From NCBI GenBank assembly GCA_039819405.1, contig JBCBSB010000008.1:451-64450 (forward strand): DNA of 64,000 nt. Direction: 5' to 3'. Below the pieces are notes generated by a model. That model was not told where the DNA came from and ran no database searches. It worked only from the letters and a program-made list of their open reading frames with translations. Of this stretch, positions 1 through 57,847 are shown one piece after another (the stretch's first letter is position 1; every line of letters starts with the position of its first letter). The stretch comes from Pseudomonadota bacterium. GTDB taxonomy: Bacteria; Pseudomonadota; Alphaproteobacteria; Caulobacterales; Parvularculaceae. A program made the translations under genes and the position numbers.

Positions 1-198
1 TAAATGCGAATTGCACAGCGATGATCTGGGTTAAAAGGAAGCCCAAGCTTGCACGCGACATCGCCGCTAGTTCCAAGAGATCTGATTCTGACATCGCGCC
101 CCGCTCCTACTAATCATCATGCTCCTTATCATGGATCGCCGACTTCCGCTAAAGAGGACAACCTGTCATTCAAAAGTCTCACCACCACAGGCGGCTAA

Positions 199-326
199 GG
201 GCCAATAGTCGCCTTTGGCCCATGCGAATCAGATTTGTCGCCGCCCCACCCTATCGCTTGCGTTTGTTGAGATGCGCGGGCGACGCGAGCAGGGTTTCGG
301 CGTCTTCTCTGGATAGTCTCACGGCG
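199..326. repeat. 128-bp direct repeat, copy 1 (att-like or gene-3'-end remnant)
   Basis: Near-identical to 1270..1397, with about 5 mismatches by eye. Starts with the hairpin gggccaa-N8-ttggccc. The minus strand reads ...RLSREDAETLLASPAHLNKRKR* with no plausible start codon. Confidence 0.85.
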
Positions 327-457
327 CCCGCCATGATCGCGGAGACGACGATATCCAGAAAGCCGTCGCCGGGCCAGGTCGCGCCGTCTGACTGTTACTC
401 GCCAAAAGCGGACATTCGCAGAACGTGATAATCTCTGTCTGATTCGGAGGAGATCTT

Positions 458-1195
458 ATGCTGCTGCGCCGAGTGATAGAACATGTCAAAGCTCAGAATT
501 GGGCAGCTGTTTTTCTCGACTTCATTATCGTTGTCGTCGGAATTCTGATCGCGTTTCAGATCACCAACTGGAACGCGGCGCTTCAAGATCGCCGCGACGA
601 GCAGCGCTATCTTGCAGAACTTGCCGTCAATCTTGAGGCTGATCTAGCCCAAGTCCGGGCCGGACAGGAGGCTTCGCTACAACGCGTTGCGGCGGCCGAA
701 GCCATTCTGGCCGAAGCCGCGCCAGACTATGAAAGGCCGCGATTCTTTCCGCAGATTGATCGTGATCTGCCGTCTCCTGGGTCGTTTCACGATTATCCTT
801 ACGCCACGCTTACCGCGTACTTCTTCATGGTCAGCTCAAGCAGCACGTTTGAAGAATTGATCCAGACGGGCAACATCAGCGTTATTTCAAACCGGTCGCT
901 GGTGAAAGAGTTGACCGGCTATTATGACCGCCTGGATCGCCAGCGCGGGAACGACAATCTCATGCTGACCCAGGCAGAGGGCATGCTCGATTGGGCGCGC
1001 GAAAATGGTGTCGGCATGGCAGACCGGGCAAGCTTGGAGGACACCATCGACATGGCGAAGGCAGATAAAACGTTTCTCGGTTTCGTGAAAATGGCAAGAT
1101 TTCTCGCCTACTTTCAATACACCCGTCTCCTGGGTGTAGAAACGAACACCAAGACGCTTCTTGCCGCCGTCGAATCAGAACTGGAGGCGCGCTGA
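458..1195 (+). CDS. Membrane-anchored hypothetical protein (DUF6090-like N-terminus)
   Basis: ATG at 458 preceded by ggagga. The N-terminal helix FLDFIIVVVGILIAFQITNWN matches the signature I recall for DUF6090 proteins. Bracketed by the two 128-bp repeats. Confidence 0.6.
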   Translation: MLLRRVIEHVKAQNWAAVFLDFIIVVVGILIAFQITNWNAALQDRRDEQRYLAELAVNLEADLAQVRAGQEASLQRVAAAEAILAEAAPDYERPRFFPQIDRDLPSPGSFHDYPYATLTAYFFMVSSSSTFEELIQTGNISVISNRSLVKELTGYYDRLDRQRGNDNLMLTQAEGMLDWARENGVGMADRASLEDTIDMAKADKTFLGFVKMARFLAYFQYTRLLGVETNTKTLLAAVESELEAR

Positions 1196-1269
1196 CTATC
1201 CTCCGGCAAACCATCGAACATTCCAATACCCAAAACTAAACGCTCGTGTATGCCTCTTGTGACTGATTC

Positions 1270-1397
1270 GGGCCAATAGTCGCCTTTGGCCCATGCGAAT
1301 CAGATTTGTCGCCGCCCCACCCTATCGCTTGCGTTTGTTGAGATGCGCGGGCGACGCCAGCAGGGTTTCGGCGTCTTTGCTGGATAGTCTTGCGGCG
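1270..1397. repeat. 128-bp direct repeat, copy 2
   Basis: Aligns base-for-base with 199..326. The minus strand reads ...RLSSKDAETLLASPAHLNKRKR*. Confidence 0.85.
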
Positions 1398-1543
1398 TTG
1401 GGGAAGCGGCCTTCATAACTGTCTTCATTAAGCAGGACGCATTTTTATAGACGGAAGCAACCAGCCCTTGCGGTTGAAAGAGGTGAATAAAGCAGTGCTA
1501 GCGTAGAAGACGGATTTCTTTGTTTATCCATTAGCATCAATTC

Positions 1544-2188
1544 ATGTCGAGAGGTTTTCTTATGCCAGATAGTCCGTATGGATACACCGACCATGGCGGA
1601 ACACCGCATTGCAATAATTGCGGGTTTCCAATGGGAGCGTGCTCATGTGAGAGCGGCAACAAAACACGTGAGAGCGGCAACAAAATCTGCTTTCCTGCAT
1701 CTGCGGAAGTGCTCACGCCAAATGGAACAAGGCTTATCGCAGAGCTTGTAGCGGGAAATGATGTATATGCTTTTGGTCAAGATGGCCGTATTGGCGTACA
1801 ATCGATTATTCGCCGAAAAGACTACCCCAAGACAAATATTTTAAGCATTCACGCTGATAACGGCGCTCCGGTTCGAGTCACTGCCAGCCACTCTATTCTA
1901 ACTGAGAAAGGATGGAAAAGGGTCGGTAACCTTAAGCCGGGTGACGTGTTTTTCGAATATTATGACGGGACATTGGCGCCCAGAGTCGTAAGACACTTCA
2001 CTCGAGAGGCAACTCCCGAAACCGTCCACAACTTGATTGTGTCTAATTGCTATACTTTTGTGGTACGTGGCTGCATTGCTCATAGCTTTACTTATTTCAG
2101 GAGCCCTCGAATGTTTCTCTCCAGGGTCGTTCAAGCTAGTGCGAAGCTCGTTTCGGCTCAGTCGCAACCAACACAGGCGACAACTTAG
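1544..2188 (+). CDS. Stand-alone Hint (Hedgehog/intein-like, BIL-type) domain protein with Cys-rich leader
   Basis: C49 begins block A (CFPASAEVLTPNG). TASH (T113-H116) is the TxxH block B. The C-terminal blocks are VHNLIVSNCYTFVVRGCIAH|S. The domain is about 132 aa. An alternative ATG at 1562 has a gagagg RBS. Confidence 0.75.
   Translation: MSRGFLMPDSPYGYTDHGGTPHCNNCGFPMGACSCESGNKTRESGNKICFPASAEVLTPNGTRLIAELVAGNDVYAFGQDGRIGVQSIIRRKDYPKTNILSIHADNGAPVRVTASHSILTEKGWKRVGNLKPGDVFFEYYDGTLAPRVVRHFTREATPETVHNLIVSNCYTFVVRGCIAHSFTYFRSPRMFLSRVVQASAKLVSAQSQPTQATT
1647..1688 (+). repeat. Perfect 2 x 21-bp in-frame tandem repeat immediately before the Hint Cys1 codon
   Basis: gtgagagcggcaacaaaa occurs at 1647 and again at 1668. 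It encodes ESGNKTR-ESGNKI and ends at the Cys1 codon (1688). Confidence 0.9.
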
Positions 2189-2287
2189 CCTCCGGGCAAG
2201 CGACACGCCGCTTGCCAGCTATGCGGGATCACTCAGGTTTGTCTCCGGTCAGGCAGGTCGTTTGCGTATCGGGCGCCTCATCTAACC

Positions 2288-2387
2288 GCTCATTCCCGCG
2301 CAGGCGGGAATCCAGATATACATAATAAGCCGAGCTTCGCTCGTCATTTTTCGTTTGATGGATCCCCGCCTGCGCGGGGATGAGCGG
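2288..2387. repeat. REP/MITE-like paired palindromic element (family copy A)
   Basis: gctcattcccgcgcaggcgggaatccag ... tggatccccgcctgcgcggggatgagcgg. Each arm is itself a hairpin, and the two arms are inverted relative to each other. Confidence 0.8.
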
Positions 2388-2413
2388 GGGTAAGATTTAT
2401 GCAACTAGCACCT

Positions 2414-2476
2414 ACCCTATCACCCGCGCTCATTGAGATGCGTTGCGAGCGCAAGCAAGGTTTCGGCGTCTTTTTC
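2414..2476. repeat. Diverged third copy of the distal part of the 128-bp repeat
   Basis: accctatcacccgcgctcattgagatgcgttgcgagcgcaagcaaggtttcggcgtc aligns with 248..310 at roughly three quarters identity by eye. The minus strand reads TEKDAETLLALATHLNERG*. Confidence 0.6.
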
Positions 2477-2478
2477 TG

Positions 2479-2883
2479 TCAGCGTTTTGCCGCAATGGCA
2501 AAGACTGCGCCGCAAAGAATAGCCGCGATCCAGATATTGCGCTGAGGGCTGCGGGGCGCATTGCCAAGTAATTCTTCAATGAAGTCTTCGCAATTATAAG
2601 CGAGGCTATACTGACGCTTCGCCCTCAGCTCATGCGCGCGAAATAACAGTTCATCAACTGAGTAATTAGACCAAGCGCCATGTTCAATGTCAGCTTGCTT
2701 CCCGCAAATTGCATCCGCCAACGGCTCAATAACAATGTTTCTTACAGGGTCCATATGGACGGCCCATACGCCGTTTAGCACCAAAATTTTGTGCTTCACC
2801 ACCCCCTTAAGAACTGAGTAAATCTGACAATATGCAAAATTCATAACTTCTAATACCATGCTTGATTCGTTGAACTTGACCAC
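2479..2883 (-). CDS. LRAT/PLAAT-like (NlpC/P60 superfamily) enzyme with C-terminal membrane anchor
   Basis: H31-x11-H43 (HKILVLNGVWAVH) plus YNCEDF (C98) reproduces the LRAT H-H-C pattern and the NCEHF motif. The C-terminal helix is IWIAAILCGAVFAIA. Start is GTG 2883, or ATG at 2859 or 2844. Confidence 0.6.
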   Translation of the reverse strand: MVKFNESSMVLEVMNFAYCQIYSVLKGVVKHKILVLNGVWAVHMDPVRNIVIEPLADAICGKQADIEHGAWSNYSVDELLFRAHELRAKRQYSLAYNCEDFIEELLGNAPRSPQRNIWIAAILCGAVFAIAAKR

Positions 2884-2887
2884 GATA

Positions 2888-2899
2888 GGTTAATTAACC
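2888..2899. promoter_or_regulatory. Perfect 12-bp palindrome in the 39-bp divergent intergenic region (candidate operator)
   Basis: ggttaattaacc is self-complementary and lies between the LRAT-like gene (-) and the HTH gene (+). Confidence 0.35.
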
Positions 2900-2922
2900 C
2901 ATAATCGCAAGAAAATTCAGAT

Positions 2923-3306
2923 ATGAATGTTGCAAACCCAAGACCCGCCGCCACCTTCTCGATGTTGGTAGCGCAAATCATCGCGCAACACTGCCGCGAT
3001 AAAGGCATCACCATGGCTGATTTTCATAAGAAAACCGGCATCAGCCAGCCGTCATGGTCGCGCCTTACCCGAGGGCAGACCAGCTTCGACATCGAGCATC
3101 TGAAAACAATTGAACAAAAACTCGGCATAAACATGGATAAGGCTCTAGCCAGTGCAAAACGTCTGGAGATCAAAGCTAAAAAGGAGGGAATAAAGATCAT
3201 CCGCCCATATACAACGCAAAAGAAAGACGATCTCGCAAAGCTTGGCGTAAATATCGTCGCCGTTGCTGTGTTGAGTTTCCTCGCTGTACAAATTCTAAAG
3301 AAATAA
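2923..3306 (+). CDS. XRE-type HTH protein with C-terminal transmembrane anchor
   Basis: The HTH is FHKKTGISQPSWSRLTRGQTSFDIEHLKTIEQKLG. The C-terminal helix is VNIVAVAVLSFLAVQIL. ATG at 2923. Confidence 0.6.
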   Translation: MNVANPRPAATFSMLVAQIIAQHCRDKGITMADFHKKTGISQPSWSRLTRGQTSFDIEHLKTIEQKLGINMDKALASAKRLEIKAKKEGIKIIRPYTTQKKDDLAKLGVNIVAVAVLSFLAVQILKK

Positions 3307-3412
3307 ATTTTATCGCGCCCGCCATTTTTCAGTTTATGAACGCTGTATCGCAAACGACAGTTTGTATGTGTCGAAAGTCAAGTGAATCGCACATCGGAAT
3401 AAGTTATTTAAC

Positions 3413-3442
3413 CGCGCATCCCCGCGAAAACGGGGGCCCATC
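3413..3442. repeat. Solo, degenerate arm of the REP family
   Basis: cgcgcatccccgcgaaaacgggggcccatc resembles a single arm of the paired elements. Confidence 0.5.
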
Positions 3443-3635
3443 TAAAGAAAAGCGACTGGCTAGAAATCGCCTGACAAGTGGAAGTTTGACTTCCAAAATT
3501 AGATACCCATTTGCGATTCGGCGTCGTTCATAGTTTGTCAAAAACAACAACAAGCGACTAGAAATGAAAATTATTGGAAAGATATAAGCATGGACTTATG
3601 ATGGTCAGCGTTAAGCAAAAAGATCGGTTCAAAGT

Positions 3636-4832
3636 GTGAATTACCTCAAACCGCATACGATTGACGACATACTTGAAATGCAGCGTCGCGGCGACGAAGA
3701 GGGGGCAACGCTCGAATACAAGTCATCACGCATCTTTAGTCAAAAGAATGAAAAGATTTTTGAATCTCTATCGAGAGAAATTACCGCATTTGCCAATGCG
3801 ATTGGCGGGGTTTTGATCATTGGTGTTGAAGACCAAGAGCGCCGGATCGCAGACATCGTGCCTATTACTGATTCAACAAAGCACGAGTCATGGCTTGAGG
3901 ATGGCTTGCTAGCGTGTATTTCGCCAAGTCTTCAGATTTCGATTGACCGGATTGACGCGGAAAATGGGCACATCCTTGTTATTGATGTGCCTCCTTCACG
4001 AAATGCGCCGCATCAGGCTGCCGATAAGCGCTTTTATGCGCGACGTTTATTTCGTGTTGATCCGCTGCTCACCTATGAAGTGGATGATATCCGGAGAAGA
4101 GTCGCCAGTTCTCCGAACGGAGCAAGCCTCTCAATAATATTTCAGAGCGGCAGCGTATCTTTTTCGATCAAGAATGAGGGAATTGGGCCGATATTTGATG
4201 TTTCAGTTCAGATCGAGGGCGTTGAAAATACCACCATTGCTCAACAATGGACACCAGGGCTGGGCCGACCTTACACTGAACCTTTCAAGATTATTCATTC
4301 TGGCGAGACGAGGTACTTCCTTAGTGCAGGCTTCGAGTTTTTCCAAAAGCACTTGGAAGACCGCATGAATGTTTGCCTTTACTACACTGATGAAGATGAA
4401 AAAAAACATCAGAAGAATTTTACCTACTACCTGCAGGACTTTCATAACACGTTTAGTCCTAATGCTCCTTATAAAGATGTTTTTGAGAAAGGAATAAAAC
4501 AACTGGAAAGAGTCGAGCGGACTATCACCGATTTGGCCAATAATGCGGAATCAATTCAGGATAGTGCTTTTCACCCAACCGGATTGAATTTTTCCAAAAC
4601 GACCCTTGCCGTCTTGTCCAACAGGGCCGAAGTGATGTGGCCAGGAGAATTCCTCTCATACGAAGGCATAGCAGAAGTTCTGGAGATCGATATTGAAACA
4701 GCCCTAAAAATCAAGCGGGAGCTGTTCGGCGCATCACATCATATCGGCGGCGAGAATAAGGCGCTCGAAGAAATCGACTTACCCGATGACATCAAGAAAC
4801 GAATTCGCCAGCGATTGATACTGCCTAACTAG
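3636..4832 (+). CDS. AlbA_2 (Schlafen-like putative nucleic-acid-binding) domain protein with unknown ~250-aa C-terminal region
   Basis: The N-terminus ...GDEEGATLEYKSS...LSREITAFANAIGGVLIIGVED fits the ExxxLEFK...AFAN..GG.L.IGV.D AlbA_2 signature. Start is GTG 3636 or ATG 3678. The gene is AT-rich. Confidence 0.65.
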   Translation: MNYLKPHTIDDILEMQRRGDEEGATLEYKSSRIFSQKNEKIFESLSREITAFANAIGGVLIIGVEDQERRIADIVPITDSTKHESWLEDGLLACISPSLQISIDRIDAENGHILVIDVPPSRNAPHQAADKRFYARRLFRVDPLLTYEVDDIRRRVASSPNGASLSIIFQSGSVSFSIKNEGIGPIFDVSVQIEGVENTTIAQQWTPGLGRPYTEPFKIIHSGETRYFLSAGFEFFQKHLEDRMNVCLYYTDEDEKKHQKNFTYYLQDFHNTFSPNAPYKDVFEKGIKQLERVERTITDLANNAESIQDSAFHPTGLNFSKTTLAVLSNRAEVMWPGEFLSYEGIAEVLEIDIETALKIKRELFGASHHIGGENKALEEIDLPDDIKKRIRQRLILPN

Positions 4833-4911
4833 AGGGCAGGGCTAAACCAAACTGCACCCCACTAGTCTAATCTACACAGAACTAGCAATGTAATCCAGTG
4901 CGCGGCTTCAA

Positions 4912-5163
4912 TCAGCTCGGCTTTCGGTCAAGCAAATCGCCAGCGCTGCATTTGAGCCTTTTGCAAAGGCGCTGCAGCGTATCAATGGTGACGTTCTGGA
5001 TGCCCTGTTCGATTCTATTAATCGTCGCCTGATTGACGCCGACTTTCAGCGCGAAGGCCGTTTGGGTCATCTTACCGCGTCGCGCGCGGATATTTTCAGC
5101 CAGATTTTTTCGAAAGTCAGCCACGAGCCGGAAAATGGCATTGATTGTTATGCACATGTGCAT
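4912..5163 (-). CDS. Small XRE-family HTH regulator (83 aa)
   Basis: Only the last 83 codons of ORF 4912..5661 look real: NIRARRGKMTQTAFALKVGVNQATINRIEQG is a canonical XRE HTH. ATG (MHM...) at 5163. The upstream part of the ORF is antisense to the next gene. Confidence 0.6.
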   Translation of the reverse strand: MHMCITINAIFRLVADFRKNLAENIRARRGKMTQTAFALKVGVNQATINRIEQGIQNVTIDTLQRLCKRLKCSAGDLLDRKPS

Positions 5164-5166
5164 AAT

Positions 5167-6372
5167 ATGCAGTTGCGCATAATCGAGAGGCGGCTTGTGA
5201 CCATCCAGACGCTGACGCAGGAGCGCAAACCCCCGCCCGCCGCAGCGGCGGAGCATTGCGTCATTTATGACGAGGCCAATATCGACCGGCTCGACCGCGC
5301 GGCGATCTGGAACCTGACGGGGCCGCAGATCGCCTATCTCCAGGGGCTTATTAAAAACGGCCCGCGGCGCTACATCGCCAATGCGCCCCGCGATGCCCGC
5401 CAGCGCCTGATCGTTTATCGCGGCTGCGCCCTGCCCTTCACCGTCACGTCCCGTGAGGAACGGGTGTTCTGCGTCTCGCCCAAGACCTGCTGGTTCGATT
5501 ATCCGCGCCTTCTTTATCGCAACAGCGCCGGGCGGGCCCGCGCGCCGGTTTTGAATTTTCTGTTGGGCGCGGCGCGCCGCCTCGCGCGATTTGAAAAGAC
5601 CGTGACGCTCAACAACTGGTGGCTGACCAATAACCCGACGCCGGCATTCTCGCCCGCGCACTTACGCGCCTTCACCGATCATCTGACTGCGCTCTACCCG
5701 GAGCATCTGATCGTTCTCAAAAGCCTCCCCGAAACCGACCCCACCGGCGTCATCGACGCGGTGCGCGCAGCCGGCTATGCGCTGGTCAAGTTCCGCTTCA
5801 TGCATTTTCGCGAGGCCACAGCCAAACGCACCAAGGCGTTCCGTTACGACCAGAAACTGTTGAAGACGACGGGGTTCGCGACGCGCTATCTGACGCACAT
5901 GAGCGGGCGCGAAGCGGAACAATGCGAAGCGCTCTATCAGAACCTTTACATCGGCAAGCACACCGACATGAACACCGCGCTGAACCGGCGCTGGATGGCG
6001 CTTGCGTGCAACACGCGCTTTCTTGATTTTTTCACGATCGAAGACGGCGAGGCGATCAAGGGCTTCGTCGTTTCCTATGCCGACGCCAACGGCGTCAATG
6101 TCGGGACCTGCGGCTATGATCTGTCGGCGCCGCAAGAGGCCGGGCTCTACCGCATGATCGTCGGCTCGGTCTTTCGCAAAGGGCTGGAGGAAGGCAAGAC
6201 CGTCAATCTCAGCACCAGCGTCCCCGATTTCAAACGCCGGCGCGGCTGTCATCGCGTCATCGAATATGAAGCGGTCTACGCCGGGCATCTGCCTTTCGCG
6301 ACGCGGGTGTCCCTTCGCCTGTTCGCGAAATTTTATAACAGCAAGCCCATGGACAGGATGCGCTGCGCGTGA
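5167..6372 (+). CDS. Hypothetical protein, possibly a GNAT-fold/FemAB-like acyltransferase
   Basis: Long ORF with high-GC codon usage. The C-terminal DFKRRRGC...EYEAVY resembles the (E/D)YK.R.G motif of Acetyltransf_6/FemAB-like families. The start is uncertain (ATG 5167 is the first in-frame candidate). Confidence 0.4.
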   Translation: MQLRIIERRLVTIQTLTQERKPPPAAAAEHCVIYDEANIDRLDRAAIWNLTGPQIAYLQGLIKNGPRRYIANAPRDARQRLIVYRGCALPFTVTSREERVFCVSPKTCWFDYPRLLYRNSAGRARAPVLNFLLGAARRLARFEKTVTLNNWWLTNNPTPAFSPAHLRAFTDHLTALYPEHLIVLKSLPETDPTGVIDAVRAAGYALVKFRFMHFREATAKRTKAFRYDQKLLKTTGFATRYLTHMSGREAEQCEALYQNLYIGKHTDMNTALNRRWMALACNTRFLDFFTIEDGEAIKGFVVSYADANGVNVGTCGYDLSAPQEAGLYRMIVGSVFRKGLEEGKTVNLSTSVPDFKRRRGCHRVIEYEAVYAGHLPFATRVSLRLFAKFYNSKPMDRMRCA

Positions 6373-6403
6373 CGCGCGGCGAGGGCCCAAGCTCAATACA
6401 CCG

Positions 6404-7021
6404 TCAGGACCCGGCGGCGTAGGTTTTCAAAAACATCTCGACGGCGCCATTGGCGGCGCGTTCGATCTCGGCCTTGGAGAAATTCTTCTTGATACAGAAC
6501 AGACGCTTGAAAAAAAGATCGCTTCGGCCCAGCTGGATGAACTGGTTCGCCGCCAGGTCGATATCGTCAATGACCAGTTCTCCGCGGGCGACCGCCGCGG
6601 CGAGCAACTGCGACAACCGGCGATGGCCGATATCCGGACCGGAATCGTAAAAGGCGCGCGCCAGTTCCGGAAAACGCTCCGCTTCCGCGACGACAACCCT
6701 GAAAATTCCTTGCATGAAGGGCGAGATCATCAGTTCGATGTAGTTATATGCGATTGCCTGCAGCGCTTCGTCTATATTTTGAGGGGCGGCGTCGACATTG
6801 AAAATAAGCCGCGCCTGTTCCCGGCACTGATCTTCCACAAAGGCGGCGAACAAGGTCCGCTTGTCCGGGAAATAGTTATAGAGCGTGCCTTTCGAGACGC
6901 CGGCGCGGCGCGCGATCGCATCGGTGCTCGCGCCCTCGTAGCCCATCTCAAGAAAGGCGTCCTTCGCGCCATCGAGGATTTGCCGCGCCTTCGGGCCCTC
7001 AAGGTCGATTGTTGCTGACAT
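6404..7021 (-). CDS. TetR/AcrR family transcriptional regulator
   Basis: ILDGAKDAFLEMGYEGASTDAIARRAGVSKGTLYNYFPDK is a canonical TetR N-terminal HTH. ATG (MSATIDL) at 7021. Confidence 0.85.
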   Translation of the reverse strand: MSATIDLEGPKARQILDGAKDAFLEMGYEGASTDAIARRAGVSKGTLYNYFPDKRTLFAAFVEDQCREQARLIFNVDAAPQNIDEALQAIAYNYIELMISPFMQGIFRVVVAEAERFPELARAFYDSGPDIGHRRLSQLLAAAVARGELVIDDIDLAANQFIQLGRSDLFFKRLFCIKKNFSKAEIERAANGAVEMFLKTYAAGS

Positions 7022-7102
7022 TTTTATCAGACTCCATTTTTTCAACAAAACCGTTCGGTCACTATTGACTCCATAAGCCTTGTTTGTCAATTATCTCAAA
7101 AC

Positions 7103-7121
7103 TGACCGAACTGTTCGGTCA
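7103..7121. promoter_or_regulatory. Perfect 9-1-9 palindrome, candidate TetR operator
   Basis: tgaccgaac-t-gttcggtca lies in the tetR/osmC-like divergent intergenic region. A degenerate second copy ending in gttcggtca lies at about 7041..7060. Confidence 0.5.
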
Positions 7122-7260
7122 TTAATAGAAGGAAACGCCCCCGAGCGACGCCGCCGCCCTCCCCAGGCGCTCGCGTCGCCAAAAAGCCGGTCCCGCTGAC
7201 GCCCTGCCCCCCAACAGCGGGACCGGCTGCCTTTCCCAAGCACGCAGGAAGAAAAAGGAG

Positions 7261-7908
7261 ATGACCATGGCTGATATTATCTGGGACATGTCGGAACGCA
7301 CGATCGTCCGGAAGACCGGCGACGAACCGCAACAGGAAACGCTGCCCGATCCGCAGTTGAAAAAGGTCAAGCAAGGCGAGCGGATGCGCTTCGACGCGCA
7401 TGCGAATGTCGTATCGATGCCCGAAGGCATGCATCTTAAAAAAGCGACGATTTTCTCGAACGTGCCAAATGGCGGCGTCTGGGAACTGATCAGCGATGAA
7501 GGAACCGCCGTCGGCGGGCGCGGCACAGCGCCGTCGCCGCTGATGTATTTCGCCGCCGGTCTCGGCTTTTGCCTGATGAGCCATGTTGAGATGCTCAGCA
7601 AGCAAATGGATATCGAGCTGAAAGCGGTGCGCCTTGAACAACGCTCGTCATGGACGACGACCCTCGACTTCGGCGGCATCCATCCATCGGATGTTTTCGG
7701 CAAAGGCGAACGCATGGAGCTTAACCTGCTGGTCGAAAGCGACGAGCCCCAGGACAAGCTGGAAAACTTCGTCGCCTGGTGCCGTCAGGCCTGCATGGCG
7801 CTGCAGACAACCGCCGCCGCGACGCCGTCGCTGACCCGCCTGTTCGTCAATGGAGAAAACATTGGCGACATCGGCGGCGAAAGCGCCTTTGAACAAGCTC
7901 CCGCCTGA
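7261..7908 (+). CDS. OsmC/Ohr family peroxiredoxin-like protein
   Basis: SDEGTAVGGRGTAPSPLMYFAAGLGFCL matches the OsmC core motif (G..APSP.E....ALG.C). Confidence 0.7.
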   Translation: MTMADIIWDMSERTIVRKTGDEPQQETLPDPQLKKVKQGERMRFDAHANVVSMPEGMHLKKATIFSNVPNGGVWELISDEGTAVGGRGTAPSPLMYFAAGLGFCLMSHVEMLSKQMDIELKAVRLEQRSSWTTTLDFGGIHPSDVFGKGERMELNLLVESDEPQDKLENFVAWCRQACMALQTTAAATPSLTRLFVNGENIGDIGGESAFEQAPA

Positions 7909-8013
7909 TAAAACGCCCGCTATTCCGGCGCAGGCGCAAACCATAACCGGCGCGCATTGACCTTGAACACAGACCTCAAGGCAATGCGCGTGACGCGCGC
8001 GGGCGTCAACAAA

Positions 8014-8131: not shown

Positions 8132-8827
8132 TTATATTTTAAAATTGCCAGGCCCCATCATGTCAGGCAAATTCTCGCTTGCGACCGGGCATGCAACGCA
8201 GGACTTACCGTTCAAACGATAATTATTAGCGTGGTAGCGACTTAACCAATTGAGCTTTGTTTCGATCAATTCGGTGACCGGCTCGTCGGTAATTTCCAAA
8301 AGGATGCGTTTCAGCCGCACGCCACCGCTAAAGCTTCCCGACAGGTTTTGCGGATCGACCTCGCGCACGCTCTTTGGATCGGCGATATCGTCAAAGGTGA
8401 CCAGCATCGGATATTGATCCGGCGCGAGCGTCGCTTTGCGCCCCTGCGCTCTCGACAAGGCGCGAAAACTCTCGACGTCAAATCCGGGTTCGGGTGCAAA
8501 ACCCAGGGCCCAAAATGCTGCACGCCGCGGGTCACCCTTATCGTGAGGTGATTTTAACAATGCGAACAGCGTTTCCTTGCCCGGAATATCGACAAACGCC
8601 GCTTCGCCGCGCATCCAGCTTGCATTGGGACGGCCGGTCATCGAGGCGCCATAAGCTTCCTTCCAAAATACCTTGATGACGCTGGAACCGGTGTAAACCT
8701 CACCCCCCGCCTCCACCTCCAGCGTCAGCTTCTGACGCCATGTGAAAAGCGGCTTCCAACAACCCGGCAGCGCCAGCGCCGCCGGGGCGCATAACGCCGT
8801 CCGTCTCGTCACATGATCAAGCCGCAT
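8132..8827 (-). CDS. Hypothetical lipoprotein
   Basis: Lipobox LALPGC after start MRLDHV (8827). No recognisable domain. Confidence 0.5.
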   Translation of the reverse strand: MRLDHVTRRTALCAPAALALPGCWKPLFTWRQKLTLEVEAGGEVYTGSSVIKVFWKEAYGASMTGRPNASWMRGEAAFVDIPGKETLFALLKSPHDKGDPRRAAFWALGFAPEPGFDVESFRALSRAQGRKATLAPDQYPMLVTFDDIADPKSVREVDPQNLSGSFSGGVRLKRILLEITDEPVTELIETKLNWLSRYHANNYRLNGKSCVACPVASENLPDMMGPGNFKI

Positions 8828-8926
8828 AAGCGCAACTCCTGAAGACAACTTTGTTTTCACCGCCGCAAACAAAAAAGGCGCGCCGAAGCGCGCCTTTATC
8901 AATATACGCCCGACATGAGCCAGGCG

Positions 8927-9661
8927 TTAATTATTTGCGATATTGGAAATCTTGTTTTTCGGCGCCGACTTGTCGGTGACGAAATGGCGGACATGGTCGG
9001 CCATTTCCTCAATGCCCTGCTGGTGCAGTTGAACCGGGTTGGCGGCGATCTCTCTGACGCCGGTGATTTCTTCGCGCGCCATCCGGTTCAGTTTCGACGC
9101 GGCGAGGTCGTCGGCATAACCGTCGAGGCTGACGGTCTGGCTGGCGGATGACAGCTCTTCAGCGAAATAGGCCGTCTGCTGAACGAACACCATCAGCGAC
9201 GTTGCGAGATTACCCCGCGCCATGCCGTAGTCGCTGATCTCATAGCGGCTGATATAAGCCGACCCGGAAGGATCGAGACCGGCGCTGGCGAATGCATATC
9301 GGTAATTGAATGCGTTCACCGTCTGCGGGTTTGCGTTCCCCGCATACGCCGCCAGCATGGACAGGCCAACGCATTTGCTGAAATTCTCTCCGCTGCAGGC
9401 CGTCGGAATAAGCCGGAAATTTACCGCGCCGGCGAAATTCGCATCGATGAAAGGCTGGCCGTTGTCCGCGGTGTAGGACTGCCAGGTCACGCCAAGCTCG
9501 TTCAAAATCGGGCCGACCTTGTCGACGCCGAAATCGCTGATCATGCTGGTCGGATTCGTGACCGGCGCTGTCGCCGCCGGCGCTCCCAGCTGAGTGTTCT
9601 GCGCTGACGCGCCCGATACGCAAACGGCGCCCGCGAGCACCGCCCCAAAAAATCGCTTCAT
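8927..9661 (-). CDS. Hypothetical secreted protein
   Basis: Signal peptide MKRFFGAVLAGAVCVSGASAQ. No family recognised with confidence. Confidence 0.5.
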   Translation of the reverse strand: MKRFFGAVLAGAVCVSGASAQNTQLGAPAATAPVTNPTSMISDFGVDKVGPILNELGVTWQSYTADNGQPFIDANFAGAVNFRLIPTACSGENFSKCVGLSMLAAYAGNANPQTVNAFNYRYAFASAGLDPSGSAYISRYEISDYGMARGNLATSLMVFVQQTAYFAEELSSASQTVSLDGYADDLAASKLNRMAREEITGVREIAANPVQLHQQGIEEMADHVRHFVTDKSAPKNKISNIANN

Positions 9662-13367: not shown

Positions 13368-13446
13368 CGCTCATCCCCGCGAAGGCGGGGATCCAGCAGC
13401 ATGCTGATTGTTTTCTATGAATTCCCGCTTTCGCGGGAATGAGCGG
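13368..13446. repeat. REP/MITE-like paired palindromic element (family copy B)
   Basis: cgctcatccccgcgaaggcggggatccag ... atgaattcccgctttcgcgggaatgagcgg. Confidence 0.8.
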
Positions 13447-20700: not shown

Positions 20701-20765
20701 TCCCGCGAAGGCGGGAATCCAGAAAGCATTACATATTGGATTCCCGCCTTCGCGGGAATGAGCGG
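20694..20765. repeat. REP/MITE-like paired palindromic element (family copy C)
   Basis: cgctcattcccgcgaaggcgggaatccag ... ttggattcccgccttcgcgggaatgagcgg. The two arms are near-perfect inverted repeats. Confidence 0.85.
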
Positions 20766-47336: not shown

Positions 47337-47428
47337 CTCTACTCACCCTAACTAATGACGCTGTCCGCATCTGTCGCACCACGGATCAGTGTCAGAGAAA
47401 CTCCTCAAAACTACGTTAACTGATCTTG

Positions 47429-47935
47429 TTAACCGCCAAAGACCAATTGGAAGAAAGGCGTTTGCGAAAAGCTAAGAAGTCCGCCGCTTGCGATAGCAAC
47501 GCCGTAGGGCAAATCCTTTTTGCGCTGGTGCAACTCGATTAACCACGGCGCATGAGAGTAAATGGGCAAGATCGGCATTTTGCGAAACATCATCATCACG
47601 ATGGCCAGACCGAGGCCGGCGACAGCCGTCAGAAAGAGGAACGACCCAAGCGCGCCAGCGCCGAGCCACGGAGCCGTCGCTGCAACCAGCTTTGCGTCTC
47701 CGCCCCCTATGACGCGTCCTGCGTAAAGCCCAAAACCAAGCGCCAATGCGCCAGCGCCGATCAAAATTCCTTCCAGCAGGGTCTCAAGCGACGCGCCGAC
47801 CGCCAGGCCCGCCGCGGGGTAGGTCAATATCAAAATGATGGAGATCCAGTTTGGGATTTTGAATTCGTAAATATCGTTCGCCGCAGCGACAATCAGCGCA
47901 GCAGGAAAAATAGATAACAACAAGTAGGGAACCAC
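47429..47935 (-). CDS. cpaA: A24-family prepilin peptidase CpaA/TadV
   Basis: The two catalytic Asp residues lie in AANDIYEFKIPN and GGGDAKL. Confidence 0.85.
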   Translation of the reverse strand: MVPYLLLSIFPAALIVAAANDIYEFKIPNWISIILILTYPAAGLAVGASLETLLEGILIGAGALALGFGLYAGRVIGGGDAKLVAATAPWLGAGALGSFLFLTAVAGLGLAIVMMMFRKMPILPIYSHAPWLIELHQRKKDLPYGVAIASGGLLSFSQTPFFQLVFGG

Positions 47936-48001
47936 GCGGCGCTCTCCATGAAAACAGAGCGCTGATCGTATGCAGAGTGTTATTAATGTTCAGTTAGACA
48001 T

Positions 48002-48034
48002 AAAAAGAAAAAGGGAGGCTTTACAGCCTCCCCT
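48002..48034 (-). terminator. Rho-independent terminator/attenuator between flp and cpaA
   Basis: The minus strand reads ggggaggc-tgtaa-gcctccc followed by tttttcttttta. Confidence 0.75.
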
Positions 48035-48076
48035 TCAGGTATTCAAACAGCAAAACCTGCTGTGTAACTGAATGTA

Positions 48077-48244
48077 TTATTCAGTAAGGTTCGTATTGAT
48101 TTCCGTGAACGTGTTGTTCAACGTGCCGCCAAGCGACTTAACCGCAGCAATAATAGCAACGGCGATCAATGCAGCGATAAGACCGTATTCAATGGCCGTA
48201 GCACCGTCTTCGTCGGCTTTAAAACGATTGATTAGAGCTTTCAT
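48077..48244 (-). CDS. flp: Flp/Fap family pilin (55 aa), absent from the ORF track
   Basis: Hand translation gives MKALINRFKADEDGATAIEYGLIAALIAVAIIAAVKSLGGTLNNTFTEINTNLTE. The Flp motif G/ATAIEYGLIAALIAV is present, and the gene heads the cpa operon. Confidence 0.9.
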   Translation of the reverse strand: MKALINRFKADEDGATAIEYGLIAALIAVAIIAAVKSLGGTLNNTFTEINTNLTE

Positions 48245-48389
48245 TGTCGACTCCTACTTACTCTTTACTTGCACCACTCAAAGGATTTTCCTTTTAAGCG
48301 ACGTCATCATGAGCAATATGCGTAAACAAATAATAAACCTTCGGTAACTTTTTGCTCTTTATACGTATTATAGTTAATACGCATTAACC

Positions 48390-49112
48390 CTAACTGGCAA
48401 GCTCATTTAACCGGCTGATATCGTTGATCACCATGCCGGGATAATCCCTTTGCGCCACACCTTCCTGAATGAGGCTGGCGACCGCATCCGCAGTGACAAC
48501 CTCTTCGACGCCGGCCTTGTCGGCCAATTCACGGTGCTTTGGCATACGCTCTATCCGCCACTGTCCGGTCATCGCATCGCGTTCAACAAAATGCAAAAGA
48601 GCGGCGTAAACGCGCTGATGGGGCGCTGTTTCCGTATGCTCCGGATCAAACCGAACGGCTGAGAGTTGCTTCGCAACATACGTGGCGATATTGCGCATCA
48701 GCGATGGGCGCTGCGACGCCAGAGCGCGAAACTGTTCCGCATCAATAGCAATCATGGAAAGCGCCTCTTCCGCCGTCGCCGAAAACCGATCGCAAAAATC
48801 AGGCGCCGTTTCGCCAAGAGAGAGTTCAAGACCGAAAATCGTTCCTTCGCCCAGTTCTTCAATAATCATCGCCCCTGTCTCGGCATCGACAAGAGAAAGG
48901 CGCAAACGCCCGCTGAGGATAAGATAAAATTCGCTGGCGTCGAATTGACCGGCGGTAAAGACTGTATGACCTTCGTCATAATTGCGACGATCGCTGCTTT
49001 TGGAAATGACGTCAATGACAGCGTCAGACAGATCCTGAAACACCGAAAATGTAGTTAGAGCGTCAGAAAAATCGCTTTCCTGCGTTGTCGGAATAAGGGG
49101 CGTTGCTGACAT
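48390..49112 (-). CDS. Cyclic-nucleotide-binding domain protein (Crp/Fnr-like, atypical C-terminus)
   Basis: The cNMP-binding beta-barrel pattern is FQDLSD...GHTVFTAGQFDASEFYLILSGRLRL...GTIFGLELSL. No clear C-terminal HTH is visible. Confidence 0.6.
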   Translation of the reverse strand: MSATPLIPTTQESDFSDALTTFSVFQDLSDAVIDVISKSSDRRNYDEGHTVFTAGQFDASEFYLILSGRLRLSLVDAETGAMIIEELGEGTIFGLELSLGETAPDFCDRFSATAEEALSMIAIDAEQFRALASQRPSLMRNIATYVAKQLSAVRFDPEHTETAPHQRVYAALLHFVERDAMTGQWRIERMPKHRELADKAGVEEVVTADAVASLIQEGVAQRDYPGMVINDISRLNELAS

Positions 49113-49274
49113 TAATATCTCCACCGGCCCCGATTGAGTATCATCATCGATTTAAAGCACAGTAAACTGAGAACTTTAAATATACGCAGAAGCCCATAAT
49201 CCACGGGGCTTTTTTAATTAATCATTGACTCATCACTCTTAGTCTGCGGGCAACAGTTTCCAAAGGTACGTCCC

Positions 49275-49724
49275 ATGCGCATGATTTTATCCGCCTTTGC
49301 CGCTCTGATGGCGCTGACAAATACAGCGCACGCTGGCCAGATTTGGCTAACGATGGATCAGGTGCGCCCGCTTAAGCTTGAGAACCCGGCGCAAAGCATC
49401 GTCGTTGGCAACCCGGCCATCGCTGATGTGACAGTACAGGATAATGAAAACATCTTATTGTTCGGGAAAGCGCCTGGCCTTACCAATATTTATATTTTCG
49501 ATGAAAAAGGCGATGCGGTCGAAAATGTGATGATCCGCGTGCGCTCATCCAGCGCAGACATGCTGACGATGCAGCGCGGCCTGGCGCGAACAACTTATAA
49601 CTGCACAAACAATTGCGAGCCGACACTCACGGTTGGCGACGACCAGACCGTATTCACCGGCGTCTCGGCGCAAGTGCAAAACAAGCTGCAGCAGGCGACC
49701 ATGGCGGCGGGCAACGAAAACTGA
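49275..49724 (+). CDS. Pilus-formation N-terminal (secretin-N-like) domain protein, secreted
   Basis: Signal peptide, then IVVGNPAIADVTVQDNENILLFGKAPGLTNIYIFDEKG, typical of the T2SS/T3SS pilus N-terminal domain family. Confidence 0.65.
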   Translation: MRMILSAFAALMALTNTAHAGQIWLTMDQVRPLKLENPAQSIVVGNPAIADVTVQDNENILLFGKAPGLTNIYIFDEKGDAVENVMIRVRSSSADMLTMQRGLARTTYNCTNNCEPTLTVGDDQTVFTGVSAQVQNKLQQATMAAGNEN

Positions 49725-49773
49725 TTACATCAAGGCTGAGGGCCGCTGTTTGACTGTCATTCGGCGCCTTGTC

Positions 49774-50937
49774 TTACTCGCCTGGCGACTTTTCGAAATT
49801 ATAGATCCGCGGCCGTTCCTGCTGGCGAAGTTTCATCCGGCACCAGGCGTCAATTTCCCGTGCGGTTTGATCATTGGGTTGAAATTCCGGCTTCAGCACG
49901 ATGTGCGCAATCAGGCGGTTGACGCCATCGCCGCGTCGTCCCGCCTTAACATGGCACTCCCTGATCCGCGGATGCTCACGCAACGCGTCGGCGACCTGCG
50001 CCGGAAAGACATTAACCGCCCCGATTTGAACTGCGCCGTCACGCCGGCCGCCCAGACTGAACGTACGCTCCCCGGCCCATTCGAGCATATCCATCGCCTC
50101 GACGGGCTTCTCGCGGCCGTCAGGGGTCACGCGTAGCAGATCATCTCCATCGCGCCGCCAGTGATCGAAGAGGACAAACGGCTCTGTCGCGGAATCCCGC
50201 CAGCCGATGAGCCCGGATTCCGTCGACCCGTAAAGCTCGCGCATCACGCCGAACCCGGCCTTGCGCATTTCCGCACTTAATTCGTACGACATGGGCTCGC
50301 CGAACGATACCGCCATGGTGTTGTCGGGCGCCGCCAGCTCCTCGCGCATCATGTAGCGCCACAGGGTCGGCGTCGCGACCATCACATCGCCAAAAAGCAG
50401 GGTGCCGGAAAGCGCTTCAGGCGTCATGCCGCGCGCATCGACCGCTTCAATATGCTGCAAATTTGGCGTGAGCACCGAGAGGACAAATCCGAGAAGGCTG
50501 TGCGGCGCAACAAAAGATAAAAGACGGCGCCGACCGTAAAACAGATTAGCCGCAGCAGCAGCGTCCTGATAAATCTCATCAGCCGGATGAATGCACTGTG
50601 TATCATTATTATTTCGCGTCGCCGCCTTGAAGCCGAAACTTAGCAAATGCTTGTCGGCGCCCGCCGCCAGCGCCGCCGCCCAGTCGGCGATTGTGGCTGA
50701 GGCCTGCCCGTCGAGATAGGCTTCTTCAAACCCGAACAAGGCGGACATCCGTCGCGCGCACACAGCTAACTCCTCATCCGACATGCCGACGCCGCCACGC
50801 TGGAGCGGCGTTTGCGCAGACCAGCCGGCAATGGTCAGGAAATCAAAATGACGATTAAAACGGCGCGACAGCTCATCCGCGGACGCCGCGCCAATGATGC
50901 GCGCAATCTGGTCCTGGCTGATGGAAAATGACTTCAC
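49774..50937 (-). CDS. Short ANL-superfamily-like adenylate-forming enzyme (atypical)
   Basis: YGSTESG (A5-like) and GRRDGAVQIGAVNVFPAQV (A8-like) are present. No SGTTGxPK P-loop is visible. The start overlaps the pabC stop by 4 nt. Confidence 0.55.
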   Translation of the reverse strand: MKSFSISQDQIARIIGAASADELSRRFNRHFDFLTIAGWSAQTPLQRGGVGMSDEELAVCARRMSALFGFEEAYLDGQASATIADWAAALAAGADKHLLSFGFKAATRNNNDTQCIHPADEIYQDAAAAANLFYGRRRLLSFVAPHSLLGFVLSVLTPNLQHIEAVDARGMTPEALSGTLLFGDVMVATPTLWRYMMREELAAPDNTMAVSFGEPMSYELSAEMRKAGFGVMRELYGSTESGLIGWRDSATEPFVLFDHWRRDGDDLLRVTPDGREKPVEAMDMLEWAGERTFSLGGRRDGAVQIGAVNVFPAQVADALREHPRIRECHVKAGRRGDGVNRLIAHIVLKPEFQPNDQTAREIDAWCRMKLRQQERPRIYNFEKSPGE

Positions 50938-55874: not shown

Positions 55875-56019
55875 TGAAACTCCATGAAGAATCGATATTT
55901 TCGATCATATGCCGCAATATAATCTATTTGATTAATTCTCCAAGTGGTTTATCTAACCGTCATCGCGTCCCTGCCGGGCGCGAAGACAGTTTTTCATTTC
56001 TGAACCAAAGGAGACACGC
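55875..56019. promoter_or_regulatory. Divergent oxyR/ahpC control region with a LysR-type T-N11-A dyad
   Basis: tcgatattttcga (55892..55904) is a T-N11-A box. The AT-rich ataatctatttgattaat follows. The ahpC RBS is aaaggaga. Confidence 0.3.
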
Positions 56020-56565
56020 ATGTTAGGTGTCGGCGACAAACTTCCCGACTTTTCCGTTGTTGGCGTCAAGCCGAAATTCAACGCGCACGAAGAAAACGGC
56101 GAATCCGCGTTTGAGGACCTCACGCAGGAAAGCTTTTCGGGCAAGTGGAAAATCATCTATTTTTATCCGAAAGATTTCACCTTTGTCTGCCCTACGGAAA
56201 TTGCAGAGTTTGGCCGGCTTGCGGCGGAATTCGAAGATCGCGACGCGATCGTTCTTGGCGGCAGCTCCGACAACGAGTTCTGCAAGCTCGCATGGCGCCG
56301 CGATCACCCGGATCTCGACAAGCACCCGGCGTGGAGCTTCGCCGATACAACCGGCTCTCTAATCGATGGCCTTGGCATCCGCGCGCCGGAAGGCGTCGCA
56401 CTGCGCGCGACATACATTGTTGATCCGCACAATGTTATTCAGCATGTCGCTGTTAACGGGTTGAATGTTGGCCGCAACCCGCAGGAAACGCTGCGCATCC
56501 TCGATGCTCTGCAAACAGATGAGCTTTGCCCTTGCAACCGTGCGGTTGGCGGCGACACGCTCTAA
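56020..56565 (+). CDS. ahpC: Peroxiredoxin AhpC (AhpD-coupled type)
   Basis: The peroxidatic Cys lies in DFTFVCPTEI and the resolving region in ELCPCN. Confidence 0.88.
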   Translation: MLGVGDKLPDFSVVGVKPKFNAHEENGESAFEDLTQESFSGKWKIIYFYPKDFTFVCPTEIAEFGRLAAEFEDRDAIVLGGSSDNEFCKLAWRRDHPDLDKHPAWSFADTTGSLIDGLGIRAPEGVALRATYIVDPHNVIQHVAVNGLNVGRNPQETLRILDALQTDELCPCNRAVGGDTL

Positions 56566-56693
56566 ACCCCATCAAGACGGACGCGAATGGCGGACAGCCG
56601 CCGTTCGCGCCACTTGGTTCATATATTTTTCAATCATCGGCGGCGCAGCCTTCGGGCTGAGGGGCTAACTGCACGCAATATTTGGAGGCGACC

Positions 56694-57224: not shown

Positions 57225-57254
57225 CCAGTTATCGTAAACTCATTAGACATAAAA

Positions 57255-57285
57255 AAGCGCTGTCGCGAATATCGCGACAGCGCTT
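57255..57285. terminator. Hairpin terminator between convergent ahpD and lipoprotein gene 1
   Basis: aagcgctgtcgcg-aatat-cgcgacagcgctt, with an A-run on the left that becomes a T-run on the minus strand. Confidence 0.7.
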
Positions 57286-57313
57286 GTAACAGAAAATTCT
57301 AACGGTCTAATAG

Positions 57314-57661: not shown

Positions 57662-57847
57662 TTTAAGACTCCTTTTCACCAGTAAGCGCCTCAGAGTTAA
57701 ATGGGCGATCTCTATAACATAGCAGAAGCTTGCAGTGAGTTGAATCTAGCCAGTGCTAATATTGCTAATTTAGAGCATAGCATACTCATTTGATATCAAC
57801 AGCTTATCTTACCAGCGTTAGATAGTGCACGCCAAGCGTCACATCAT

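Follow-up and report, generated by a model that had tools for sequence, protein, structure and literature searches.

The window analyzed here is a 64,000-nt stretch of a metagenome-assembled genome from a bacterium of the Parvularculaceae (Alphaproteobacteria, Caulobacterales; GCA_039819405.1, contig JBCBSB010000008.1). Near its left end, between 1.4 and 4.9 kb, lies a low-G+C block with four genes. They encode a stand-alone Hint-domain protein (1544–2188, plus strand), a tail-anchored enzyme resembling LRAT and PLAAT proteins, of the permuted NlpC/P60 fold (2479–2844, minus strand), a tail-anchored Xre-family helix-turn-helix (HTH) protein, here called HTH-TM for its transmembrane (TM) helix (2923–3306, plus strand), and a prokaryotic Schlafen (pSlfn) with an AlbA_2 domain (3636–4832, plus strand). 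An earlier reading of the letters alone (the sequence-only reading) had proposed these as a candidate conflict system, and the list of open reading frames (ORFs) confirms all four where it placed them. Our analysis shows that the LRAT-like and HTH-TM genes are a conserved divergent pair, even where the proteins are only about 30% identical.

The block stands out in composition. G+C is 47.0% at 1398–4911 and 45.5% at 2479–4832, against 57.2% at 5200–64000, and the minimum among 1-kb windows of the entire 64 kb (44%) is located at 2751–4500. G+C at third codon positions (GC3) is 0.46–0.55 in the Hint, LRAT-like, HTH-TM, and AlbA_2 genes, compared with 0.655 ± 0.045 in 14 long background ORFs. 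The proposal of an accessory stretch of foreign composition is therefore borne out by both measures, but the contrast amounts to about 10 G+C points and not to the "35–55% against 68%" first suggested. The domain calls were correct, and these gene families are types employed in genetic conflict; the Hint and HTH calls exceed Pfam cut-offs and the AlbA_2 call scores 72.6 bits, whereas the LRAT call falls below its cut-off for the window protein alone. A blastn search of 150–5000 against plasmids found no match, and by exact look-up the window proteins are present solely on one 2973-nt Logan contig.

A divergent HTH-TM gene (product 121–127 aa) was found in seven of the seven LRAT-like loci with readable upstream DNA, namely the window and six fetched loci (L056, L057, L058, L061, L067, and L070); L068 was too short to judge. 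Close homologues of the LRAT-like protein number only three, and each has a divergent 127-aa neighbour 72–80% identical to the HTH-TM of the window. In L061 and L067 the HTH-TM protein (127 aa in both) is 55% identical to that of the window, and in L070 (121 aa) 32–33%; the LRAT-like proteins of these three loci are 30–36% identical to the window's. Listed as HTH-TM/LRAT-like identity to the window, the values are 80/57, 72/55, 73/54, 55/30, and 55/36%. The expectation that these two genes belong together was thus confirmed. The divergent spacer is 75–106 nt in all pair loci, and this spacing, together with the starts of the homologues, places the start of the LRAT-like protein at ATG 2844 (M14 of an ORF that is open to GTG 2883), giving a product of 121 aa.

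The catalytic residues of the LRAT-like protein are, in the numbering from GTG, His31, His43, and Cys98 (within NCEDF); an SPQ motif and a TM helix at the C-terminus come after them. Among 40 family members, His31 and Cys98 do not vary, and His43 and N97 are at least 90% conserved. The His-His spacing of 12 residues is equal to that of PLAAT3 (His23/His35). Assignment to the LRAT group is established only through the family: Pfam LRAT (PF04970) scores 16.4 bits on the window protein, below the cut-off of 24.3, but matches 33 of the 40 relatives (best E 3.8e-15), and the family profile matches PLAAT3 in the PDB (4fa0, E 1e-15) as well as PLAAT2/4, an LRAT chimera, and picornavirus 2A H-box/NC proteins. 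The AlphaFold2 (AF2) model (pLDDT, a predicted local confidence score, 77) has a helix at 111–133 that runs to the C-terminus. The top six Foldseek matches of the model are PLAAT3/2/4, with target-normalised TM-scores of 0.46–0.56 and E values of only about 1e-2, and parechovirus 2A is also among the top structural matches. Hydropathy places the anchor at about residues 101–119 of the 121-aa form, and most family members have a hydrophobic stretch at the corresponding place; C-terminal hydrophobic anchors had been claimed for both the HTH and the LRAT-like protein, and both are seen.

The window enzyme shares with the eukaryotic PLAAT (H-RAS-like suppressor) and LRAT enzymes and with the picornavirus 2A H-box/NC proteins a permuted NlpC/P60 core, the Cys triad His-x11-His...NCE(H/D)F, a Gln conserved downstream of the Cys motif, one membrane anchor at the C-terminus, and a size of about 120–160 aa. 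It differs in being bacterial and obligatorily paired with a tail-anchored HTH gene, and identity to PLAAT3 in the structural alignment is only 17–18%. Two bacterial groups of the same permuted, lipid-directed NlpC/P60 higher-order assemblage have been described. The type VI secretion system toxin Tox-Act1 shows that such enzymes serve as membrane-damaging weapons (PMC12994826), and Staphylococcus LnsA is an LRAT-like acyltransferase in lipoprotein N-acylation (PMC13559823). Tox-Act1 and TseH are secreted effectors, with immunity proteins and in secretion-system contexts, and LnsA is an exported protein whose partner is the polytopic LnsB; the window enzyme, in contrast, is predicted to face the cytoplasm as a tail-anchored protein whose partner binds DNA.

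The LRAT-like family is sparsely represented. An exhaustive profile search returned 91 cluster representatives at E ≤ 1e-3, mostly of 118–135 aa, and all 10 of the members whose origin was checked come from metagenome-type collections. Scanning the JGI metagenomes with a narrower LRAT alignment yielded one locus (L061), and a scan of the same metagenomes with the HTH-TM alignment yielded nothing; neither protein was found by tblastn in plasmids and phages, nor in viral contigs. The LRAT-like protein has no match in PADLOC or NCBIfam. In the literature on LRAT proteins in combination with anti-phage defence, toxin-antitoxin (TA) systems, and polymorphic toxins, the pair appears to be undescribed, although the library consulted was incomplete and this is weak evidence of novelty.

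The HTH-TM protein (127 aa) scores above cut-off with both Pfam HTH_26 and HTH_3. Its HTH domain contains an invariant SQPSWSRLxRGQ and is followed by a linker, the motif PYTTQKKDDLAKLG, and a TM helix at residues 107–125. The divergent control region (2845–2928) carries a sigma70-like promoter for the HTH gene, TTGACC-18-CATAAT (2876–2905), with the conserved −10 box ATAATCGCAA, and a 14-bp palindrome, ATTCAGATATGAAT, at 2915–2928, over the HTH start codon. Across loci the palindrome takes the form ATTCA(G/T)ATATGAAT, and both it and the −10 box recur in L056, L057, L058, and L067. The palindrome is a candidate autoregulatory operator.

Mostly, the contexts of the pair are mobile or defence-like. 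In L061 (2713–7687) the pair lies between a gene for a PIN_4 protein and, on the opposite side, BrnT/BrnA and then a MobA/VirD2 relaxase accompanied by a MobC-like gene. In L067 (1–3479) it adjoins an nSTAND NTPase of more than 1275 aa, and in L056, a TARA marine scaffold, a type II DNA methyltransferase is encoded about 2 kb beyond the LRAT-like gene, while an MNT-type nucleotidyltransferase and a pSlfn lie on the HTH-TM side. No defence neighbours were found in L058 and L070.

The pair resembles ImmR/ImmA, CapH/CapP, and type II TA systems with Xre antitoxins in that a small Xre HTH gene is closely linked to an enzyme gene, an autoregulatory-looking palindrome lies at the HTH promoter, and the contexts are mobile elements or defence islands. 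In contrast to these systems, where the enzyme is a Zn-metallopeptidase or a classical toxin, the partner is a papain-like LRAT enzyme; the two genes diverge instead of being co-transcribed, and both proteins are membrane-anchored. The PADLOC similarity of HTH-TM is weak (capH, E 0.011; PDC-M69A, E 5e-6). By the usual definition the pair is not a type II TA system: its genes diverge in all seven loci, and the enzyme belongs to no toxin family recognised by PADLOC or NCBIfam.

LRAT/PLAAT enzymes of the eukaryotic family load a phospholipid acyl chain onto the catalytic Cys and pass it to water or to an acceptor. Bacterial permuted NlpC/P60 relatives are also lipid-directed (PMC12994826; PMC13559823). 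Both proteins of the pair are anchored by their extreme C-termini, and their functional domains are therefore expected to face the cytoplasm at the inner membrane. We infer from these features that the pair is probably a repressor-controlled membrane-lipid effector. In the most economical model, HTH-TM would repress the divergent promoters from its own promoter/operator in the spacer of about 80 nt, keeping a PLAAT/LRAT-type Cys-His-His acyl-hydrolase/transferase silent or inactive, and it may also touch the enzyme by way of the TM helices, which are rich in Ala and Gly, and of the juxtamembrane motif PYTTQKKDDLAKLG, which is invariant. Once control is relieved, the enzyme would attack inner-leaflet phospholipids from the cytoplasmic face, with an abortive-infection-like or addiction-like outcome. 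It is possible, and we suggest it tentatively, that the pair is a new two-gene immunity or addiction module, in which a tail-anchored PLAAT-type phospholipid acyl-hydrolase is restrained at the membrane by a tail-anchored Xre repressor. An invader, or the loss of the element, would upset this restraint, and the enzyme would then rupture or remodel the inner membrane.

An alternative role, which we consider unlikely, is regulated remodelling of envelope lipids or of lipoprotein acyl groups, comparable to that of LnsA or of YiiX-type lipid enzymes and with no part in conflict. The LRAT family is lipid-metabolic in eukaryotes, LnsA is itself an LRAT-like acyltransferase (PMC13559823), and both the missing PADLOC match of the LRAT-like protein and the two loci with no defence neighbours (L058 and L070) are in keeping with such a role. 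It accords poorly, however, with a rare and patchy family whose checked members are all metagenomic singletons, with the foreign composition of the pair and the fast evolution of its enzyme, and with the relaxase, TA, and STAND or methyltransferase genes beside the pair in several loci. The active site, moreover, would be cytoplasmic, whereas LnsA is secreted and its signal peptide cleaved.

The fourth gene (3636–4832) encodes a pSlfn of 398 aa. Pfam SLFN_AlbA_2 (PF04326) matches residues 22–137 (72.6 bits, E 5e-20), so that a search for pSlfns by PF04326 domains of more than 100 aa at E < 0.001 (PMC13056530) would retrieve the protein. The catalytic motif that defines Schlafen nucleases, Ex4(E/D)xK (PMC13056530), is present as E22-GATL-E27-Y-K29, an Ex4ExK form in which none of the three residues varies among 30 homologues. 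About 50 full-length homologues of approximately 400 aa, mostly alphaproteobacterial, were found, and their end-to-end alignment validates the GTG start. In the AF2 model (overall pLDDT 75, about 80–90 in the N-terminal domain), a Slfn/AlbA_2 nuclease (1–160) precedes a beta-sandwich (about 161–272) and a helical domain (about 273–398). In a Foldseek search with the N-terminal domain, SLFN13/11/5/12/14 and the SAMD9 tRNase account for most of the top 27 matches (E down to 4e-6); matches of the beta-sandwich are weak and to Ig-like domains (Kir cytoplasmic domain, SoxYZ, FixG-related; E about 1e-3).

Prokaryotic Schlafens were shown in 2025–26 to be single-gene anti-phage tRNases (PMC13056530; Nat Microbiol 2026), and the gene, which the sequence-only reading had treated as undescribed, fits this published kind; on motif and predicted fold it is filed here as a putative new member. 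The 2023 release of PADLOC (v2) has no pSlfn model, so a DefenseFinder/PADLOC-style check of the sort then recommended would have missed the gene. Such a check finds no PADLOC v2 model that fits the AlbA_2 or the LRAT-like protein, and HTH-TM gives only the weak capH and PDC-M69A matches mentioned above. Mean pairwise identity is 0.61 for the nuclease, 0.49 for the beta-sandwich, and 0.47 for the helical domain. The nuclease is thus more conserved than the C-terminal domains, a match to the effector/sensor pattern described for pSlfns (PMC13056530). In pSlfn5, an Ig-like domain senses the T5 tail-assembly chaperone and activates tRNA cleavage (PMC13056530). By presumed homology with RorSlfn5, the one characterised Ig-type pSlfn, the variable beta-sandwich/helical half of the window protein would sense a phage product and turn on the Ex4ExK nuclease, and tRNA would be cut and translation stall.

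Like pSlfn5/RorSlfn5, the window protein is the product of a single gene with an N-terminal PF04326 domain carrying Ex4(E/D)xK, a fused non-catalytic C-terminal region that includes a beta-sandwich, a nuclease more conserved than the C-terminal part, and a patchy distribution associated with mobile elements. It differs in an extra helical domain of about 125 aa after the beta-sandwich. The window family is alphaproteobacterial and marine, whereas the tested pSlfn systems are from Enterobacterales (PMC13056530), and the window has no recognised defence gene within 10 kb of it.

A species-representative genome scan found orthologues of the pSlfn in a Parvularculaceae metagenome-assembled genome (MAG) (76% identity), Mesorhizobium sophorae (71%), Methylopila henanensis (59%), and a Hyphomicrobiales MAG (47%), with more distant full-length relatives in Rhodobacterales, Acidobacteria, and Chloroflexi; another orthologue is on a Rhodobacteraceae contig (L063). 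Viral contigs gave one distant partial match. The pSlfn loci that were read derive from isolate genomes, MAGs, and assemblies. No homologue of the Hint, LRAT-like, or HTH-TM protein was found at L002–L005 (within 10 kb) or at L062–L064, and when all ORFs of these loci were compared with one another, no neighbour of any sort proved to be conserved. In a Parvularculaceae MAG (L064) the gene is a one-gene insertion amid housekeeping genes, and DNA similarity between the window and the Parvularculaceae locus L002 stops 24 nt before and 31 nt after the pSlfn ORF. In L062 and L063 it stands beside relaxases and ArdC: the Mesorhizobium orthologue adjoins a MobA/MobL relaxase, and the Rhodobacteraceae orthologue is next to ArdC, a relaxase, and a giant NACHT protein.

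In the last of these (L063, 5996–8200), the pSlfn gene lies directly downstream of an ArdC-type antirestriction gene with a relaxase near, an arrangement resembling the leading region of a plasmid or an integrative and conjugative element. This placement raises the question of whether some pSlfn members serve the mobile element rather than the host.

The pSlfn joins the LRAT-like/HTH-TM pair only in the window and L056, and all other pSlfn loci read are devoid of the pair. In these two loci the pSlfn stands next to the pair with gene order and orientation preserved, and identities are 80% for HTH-TM, 74% for pSlfn, and 57% for the LRAT-like protein. Homology between them ends exactly at the HTH-TM stop codon and picks up again 65 nt before the start of the pSlfn. 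In between, the window has 263 nt with half a repetitive extragenic palindromic (REP) unit, and L056 has a nucleotidyltransferase (NTase) gene (8585–9490; MNT type, 301 aa, a weak PADLOC PDC-S09 match, C-terminus seemingly frameshifted), of which no remnant was found in the window spacer (3307–3635); nothing but this spacer differs from L056 in the comparison. We conclude that these are two separable modules, which on one occasion travelled together. Co-occurrence of the LRAT-like, HTH-TM, and AlbA_2 genes, put forward as a check by the sequence-only reading, holds for the pair (seven of seven LRAT-like loci with readable upstream DNA) but not for AlbA_2, which is absent from five of the seven pair loci.

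This distribution also bears on the idea that the pair is the regulatory front end of the Schlafen nuclease, a repressor plus a papain-like inactivating enzyme comparable to CapH/CapP or ImmR/ImmA. That the order LRAT-like(−), HTH-TM(+), pSlfn(+) has been kept in the window and L056 despite 20–45% protein divergence speaks for it, as do the weak capH and PDC-M69A matches of HTH-TM and the papain-like nature of NlpC/P60 enzymes. Yet the pair is missing at the closest pSlfn orthologue (L002, 76%) and at all others except L056; L057, L058, L061, L067, and L070 have another gene downstream of HTH-TM, a convergent one, or none; the pSlfn has promoter-like sites of its own; and the homology with L056 breaks exactly between the modules, where that locus has its extra gene. 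We regard such a three-gene system as improbable.

The Hint protein (1544–2188) is 214 aa long, or 208 aa if it starts at M7. It consists of an N-terminal segment with CxxC...CxC, a Hint domain from Cys49 to His180-Ser181, an FTYFRxPR motif, and a 33-aa tail. Scores are 34.1 bits for Pfam Hint (cut-off 29.7), 26.1 bits for NCBIfam intein_Nterm (above cut-off), and 26.9 bits for PT-HINT (below the cut-off of 27.7), and the family profile matches RecA and DnaX mini-inteins and the bacterial intein-like (BIL) domain 2lwy. Signature residues of the fold are Cys1 (C49), T113/H116 of block B, and the penultimate His180. The only relatives among 5.8 billion proteins are two distant ones (43% and 36% identity, about 200 aa), both on contigs too short for context; the N-terminal segment of one contains a clear CxxC...CxxC zinc ribbon. 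The FTYFRxPR motif is conserved and the tail variable. Directly before Cys1, in a short Gly/Ser/Asn linker, the window gene has a 21-nt tandem duplication (1644–1685) that encodes (C/R)ESGNK(T/I) twice.

The domain ends in ...GCIAH-S181 followed by F182 and aligns there to the VVH(N) end of the RecA mini-intein. With Ser in place of the terminal Asn and Phe at +1, canonical splicing is not expected, and a canonical intein was ruled out on these grounds. A toxin-releasing PT-HINT module was ruled out as well, the protein having 214 aa, a 33-aa tail, and no toxin domain. With BIL/Hint domains and the PT-HINT domain of polymorphic toxins the protein shares the Hint fold signature, alongside its matches to mini-inteins and 2lwy; it differs from them in the Ser, the Phe, the short tail in place of a toxin domain, and in that there is no secretion, Rhs, or CDI context. 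It is best described as a putative orphan BIL-like autoprocessing protein, whose likeliest activity, judging from Hint domains in general, would be N-terminal cleavage or thioester chemistry, and it would be unrelated to its neighbours. Its gene lies between copies of a local 128-nt repeat.

These results leave little room for a conflict system in which all four genes act together. The genes are adjacent in a single low-GC block, and all four domain types are known from conflict systems. However, the four genes occur together at no other locus, nothing homologous to the Hint protein is present in any of the approximately 70 loci fetched, whether of the pSlfn or of the pair, the orthologues of the AlbA_2 gene stand alone, and most of the pair loci have no AlbA_2 gene. 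Of the earlier suggestion that the genes work together, the LRAT-like/HTH-TM pair survives; the four-gene system is largely refuted and very improbable.

Copies of the 128-nt direct repeat lie at 199–326, upstream of a DUF6090 gene (458–1195), and at 1270–1397, between the DUF6090 and Hint genes (96–97% identical), and a partial third copy of 63 nt (2411–2473; 76% identical) abuts the 3′ end of the LRAT-like gene. The number of copies expected by chance is 0. The first copy falls outside the range covered by the sequence-only reading. The repeats bracket the DUF6090 and Hint genes and not the LRAT-like/HTH-TM/AlbA_2 block. The DUF6090 protein has an N-terminal TM helix, and its gene, flanked precisely by the two near-identical copies, has a host-like GC3 (0.62). 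On the minus strand all three copies read ...DAETLLA..HLN..stop, so the repeat might be a relic of the 3′ end of a gene; the evidence for this is thin, with three of nine differing codons synonymous. No match to the repeat was found in Rfam.

The repeats had been described as att-like and as cutting the island into modules. They are real, but folding of 1265–1405 as single-stranded DNA gave z-scores of −1.40 and −1.25 on the two strands, with no hairpin spanning the element; on this ground an attC/integron identity was rejected as unlikely, and none of the tests lent support to an att-like nature. The window contains no tRNA, and the right edge of the low-GC block has no copy. A related proposal takes the left part of the block to be an array of cassettes belonging to an integron-like or another site-specific recombination system, in the order repeat–DUF6090–repeat–Hint–REP–partial repeat, with the repeats as the sites. 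A repeat copy follows each of two genes, 128 nt is within the length range of attC, and the contig stops about 200 nt left of the first copy, as expected if further copies broke the assembly; the array could indeed extend beyond the left contig end. Weighing against these points, the repeat shows neither the long imperfect hairpin that defines attC nor visible R″/R′ core sites, no integrase ORF occurs within the first 8 kb (1–8000), although one could lie beyond the left contig end, the 64 kb and all fetched loci are free of additional copies, and the composition of the DUF6090 gene is host-like. A cassette array accordingly seems improbable.

A REP-type long hairpin at 2286–2387 consists of two inverted 29-nt palindromic units (−38.9 kcal/mol, z −8.7), and half a unit occupies 3412–3456, within the 329-nt spacer between the HTH-TM and Schlafen genes. 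REP-like units of the CCCGCGAAGGCGGGAAT type recur as inverted pairs at 13376–13437 and 20702–20756. Since the unit is found at 13.4 and 20.7 kb too, it is a dispersed element; the hairpin noticed earlier is real but not specific to the island. A known RNA identity was ruled out, Rfam giving only a spurious mir-789 match on the hairpin.

A small Xre-family HTH gene (4912–5190, minus strand; Pfam HTH_3 46.7 bits, G+C 0.51), an uncertain member of the islet, stands where the low-GC block has its right edge and shows weak similarity to HipB/Y4mF antitoxins. The 249-aa minus-strand ORF that contains it (4912–5661) is over-extended, and only its C-terminal ~90 aa, the Xre HTH, looks coding. The real frame opposite is a plus-strand ORF (up to 5062–6372; GC3 0.77) with no family match in Pfam, NCBIfam, or PADLOC. 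The junction of these divergent genes carries, at 5149–5183, 2.1 copies of a 17-nt tandem repeat, TATGCACATGCGCATAA. Elsewhere in the window, a mildly low-GC patch (about 49%) at 47400–49800 contains Flp/Tad pilus genes (an A24 prepilin peptidase and a pilus-assembly N-terminal-domain protein) and a Crp-family regulator, and a second patch of about 49% G+C at 56000–58500 encodes AhpC and AhpD-like CMD proteins; the gene content of both is ordinary.

Taken together, these observations suggest that the region from 1.4 to 4.9 kb is probably a mosaic accessory islet, of the defence type, assembled from separately mobile pieces rather than one system. Its modular structure and foreign composition, the conservation of the pair, the catalytic motifs, and the folds are established by the analysis. 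Several points weigh against this interpretation or against a defence role for its parts. Adjacency of the pair and the pSlfn in two diverged loci could reflect functional or transfer linkage, although we allow only a small chance of a functional link. The pair is known from seven readable contexts, all metagenomic. Its genes are divergent and not an operon, unlike classical type II TA, and the regulator is much more conserved than the enzyme, which a simple toxin/antitoxin picture does not predict. PADLOC v2 recognises no defence genes among the window neighbours. The biochemical activities, the sensor role, repression, and a defence phenotype are all inferred.

The four-gene idea is thus replaced by a sharper picture, that of an ordinary mosaic islet with one new two-gene module. 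The pSlfn would extend bacterial Schlafen defence nucleases to a marine alphaproteobacterial clade with an uncharacterised beta-sandwich and helical sensor. The new item is the pair, in which a PLAAT/LRAT-type membrane enzyme is combined with a transcription factor tethered to the membrane; it is linked to mobile elements, so far in metagenomes only. Should it prove to be an effector module that targets membranes, bacterial conflict systems would gain a class of lipid-acyl-hydrolase effectors, and the pair would provide an experimentally tractable bacterial relative of a family with antiviral and proviral roles in animals. The pair would then be a prokaryotic counterpart, and possibly an ancestor, of the organelle-rupturing PLAAT enzymes of eukaryotes and of the picornavirus 2A H-box/NC proteins.

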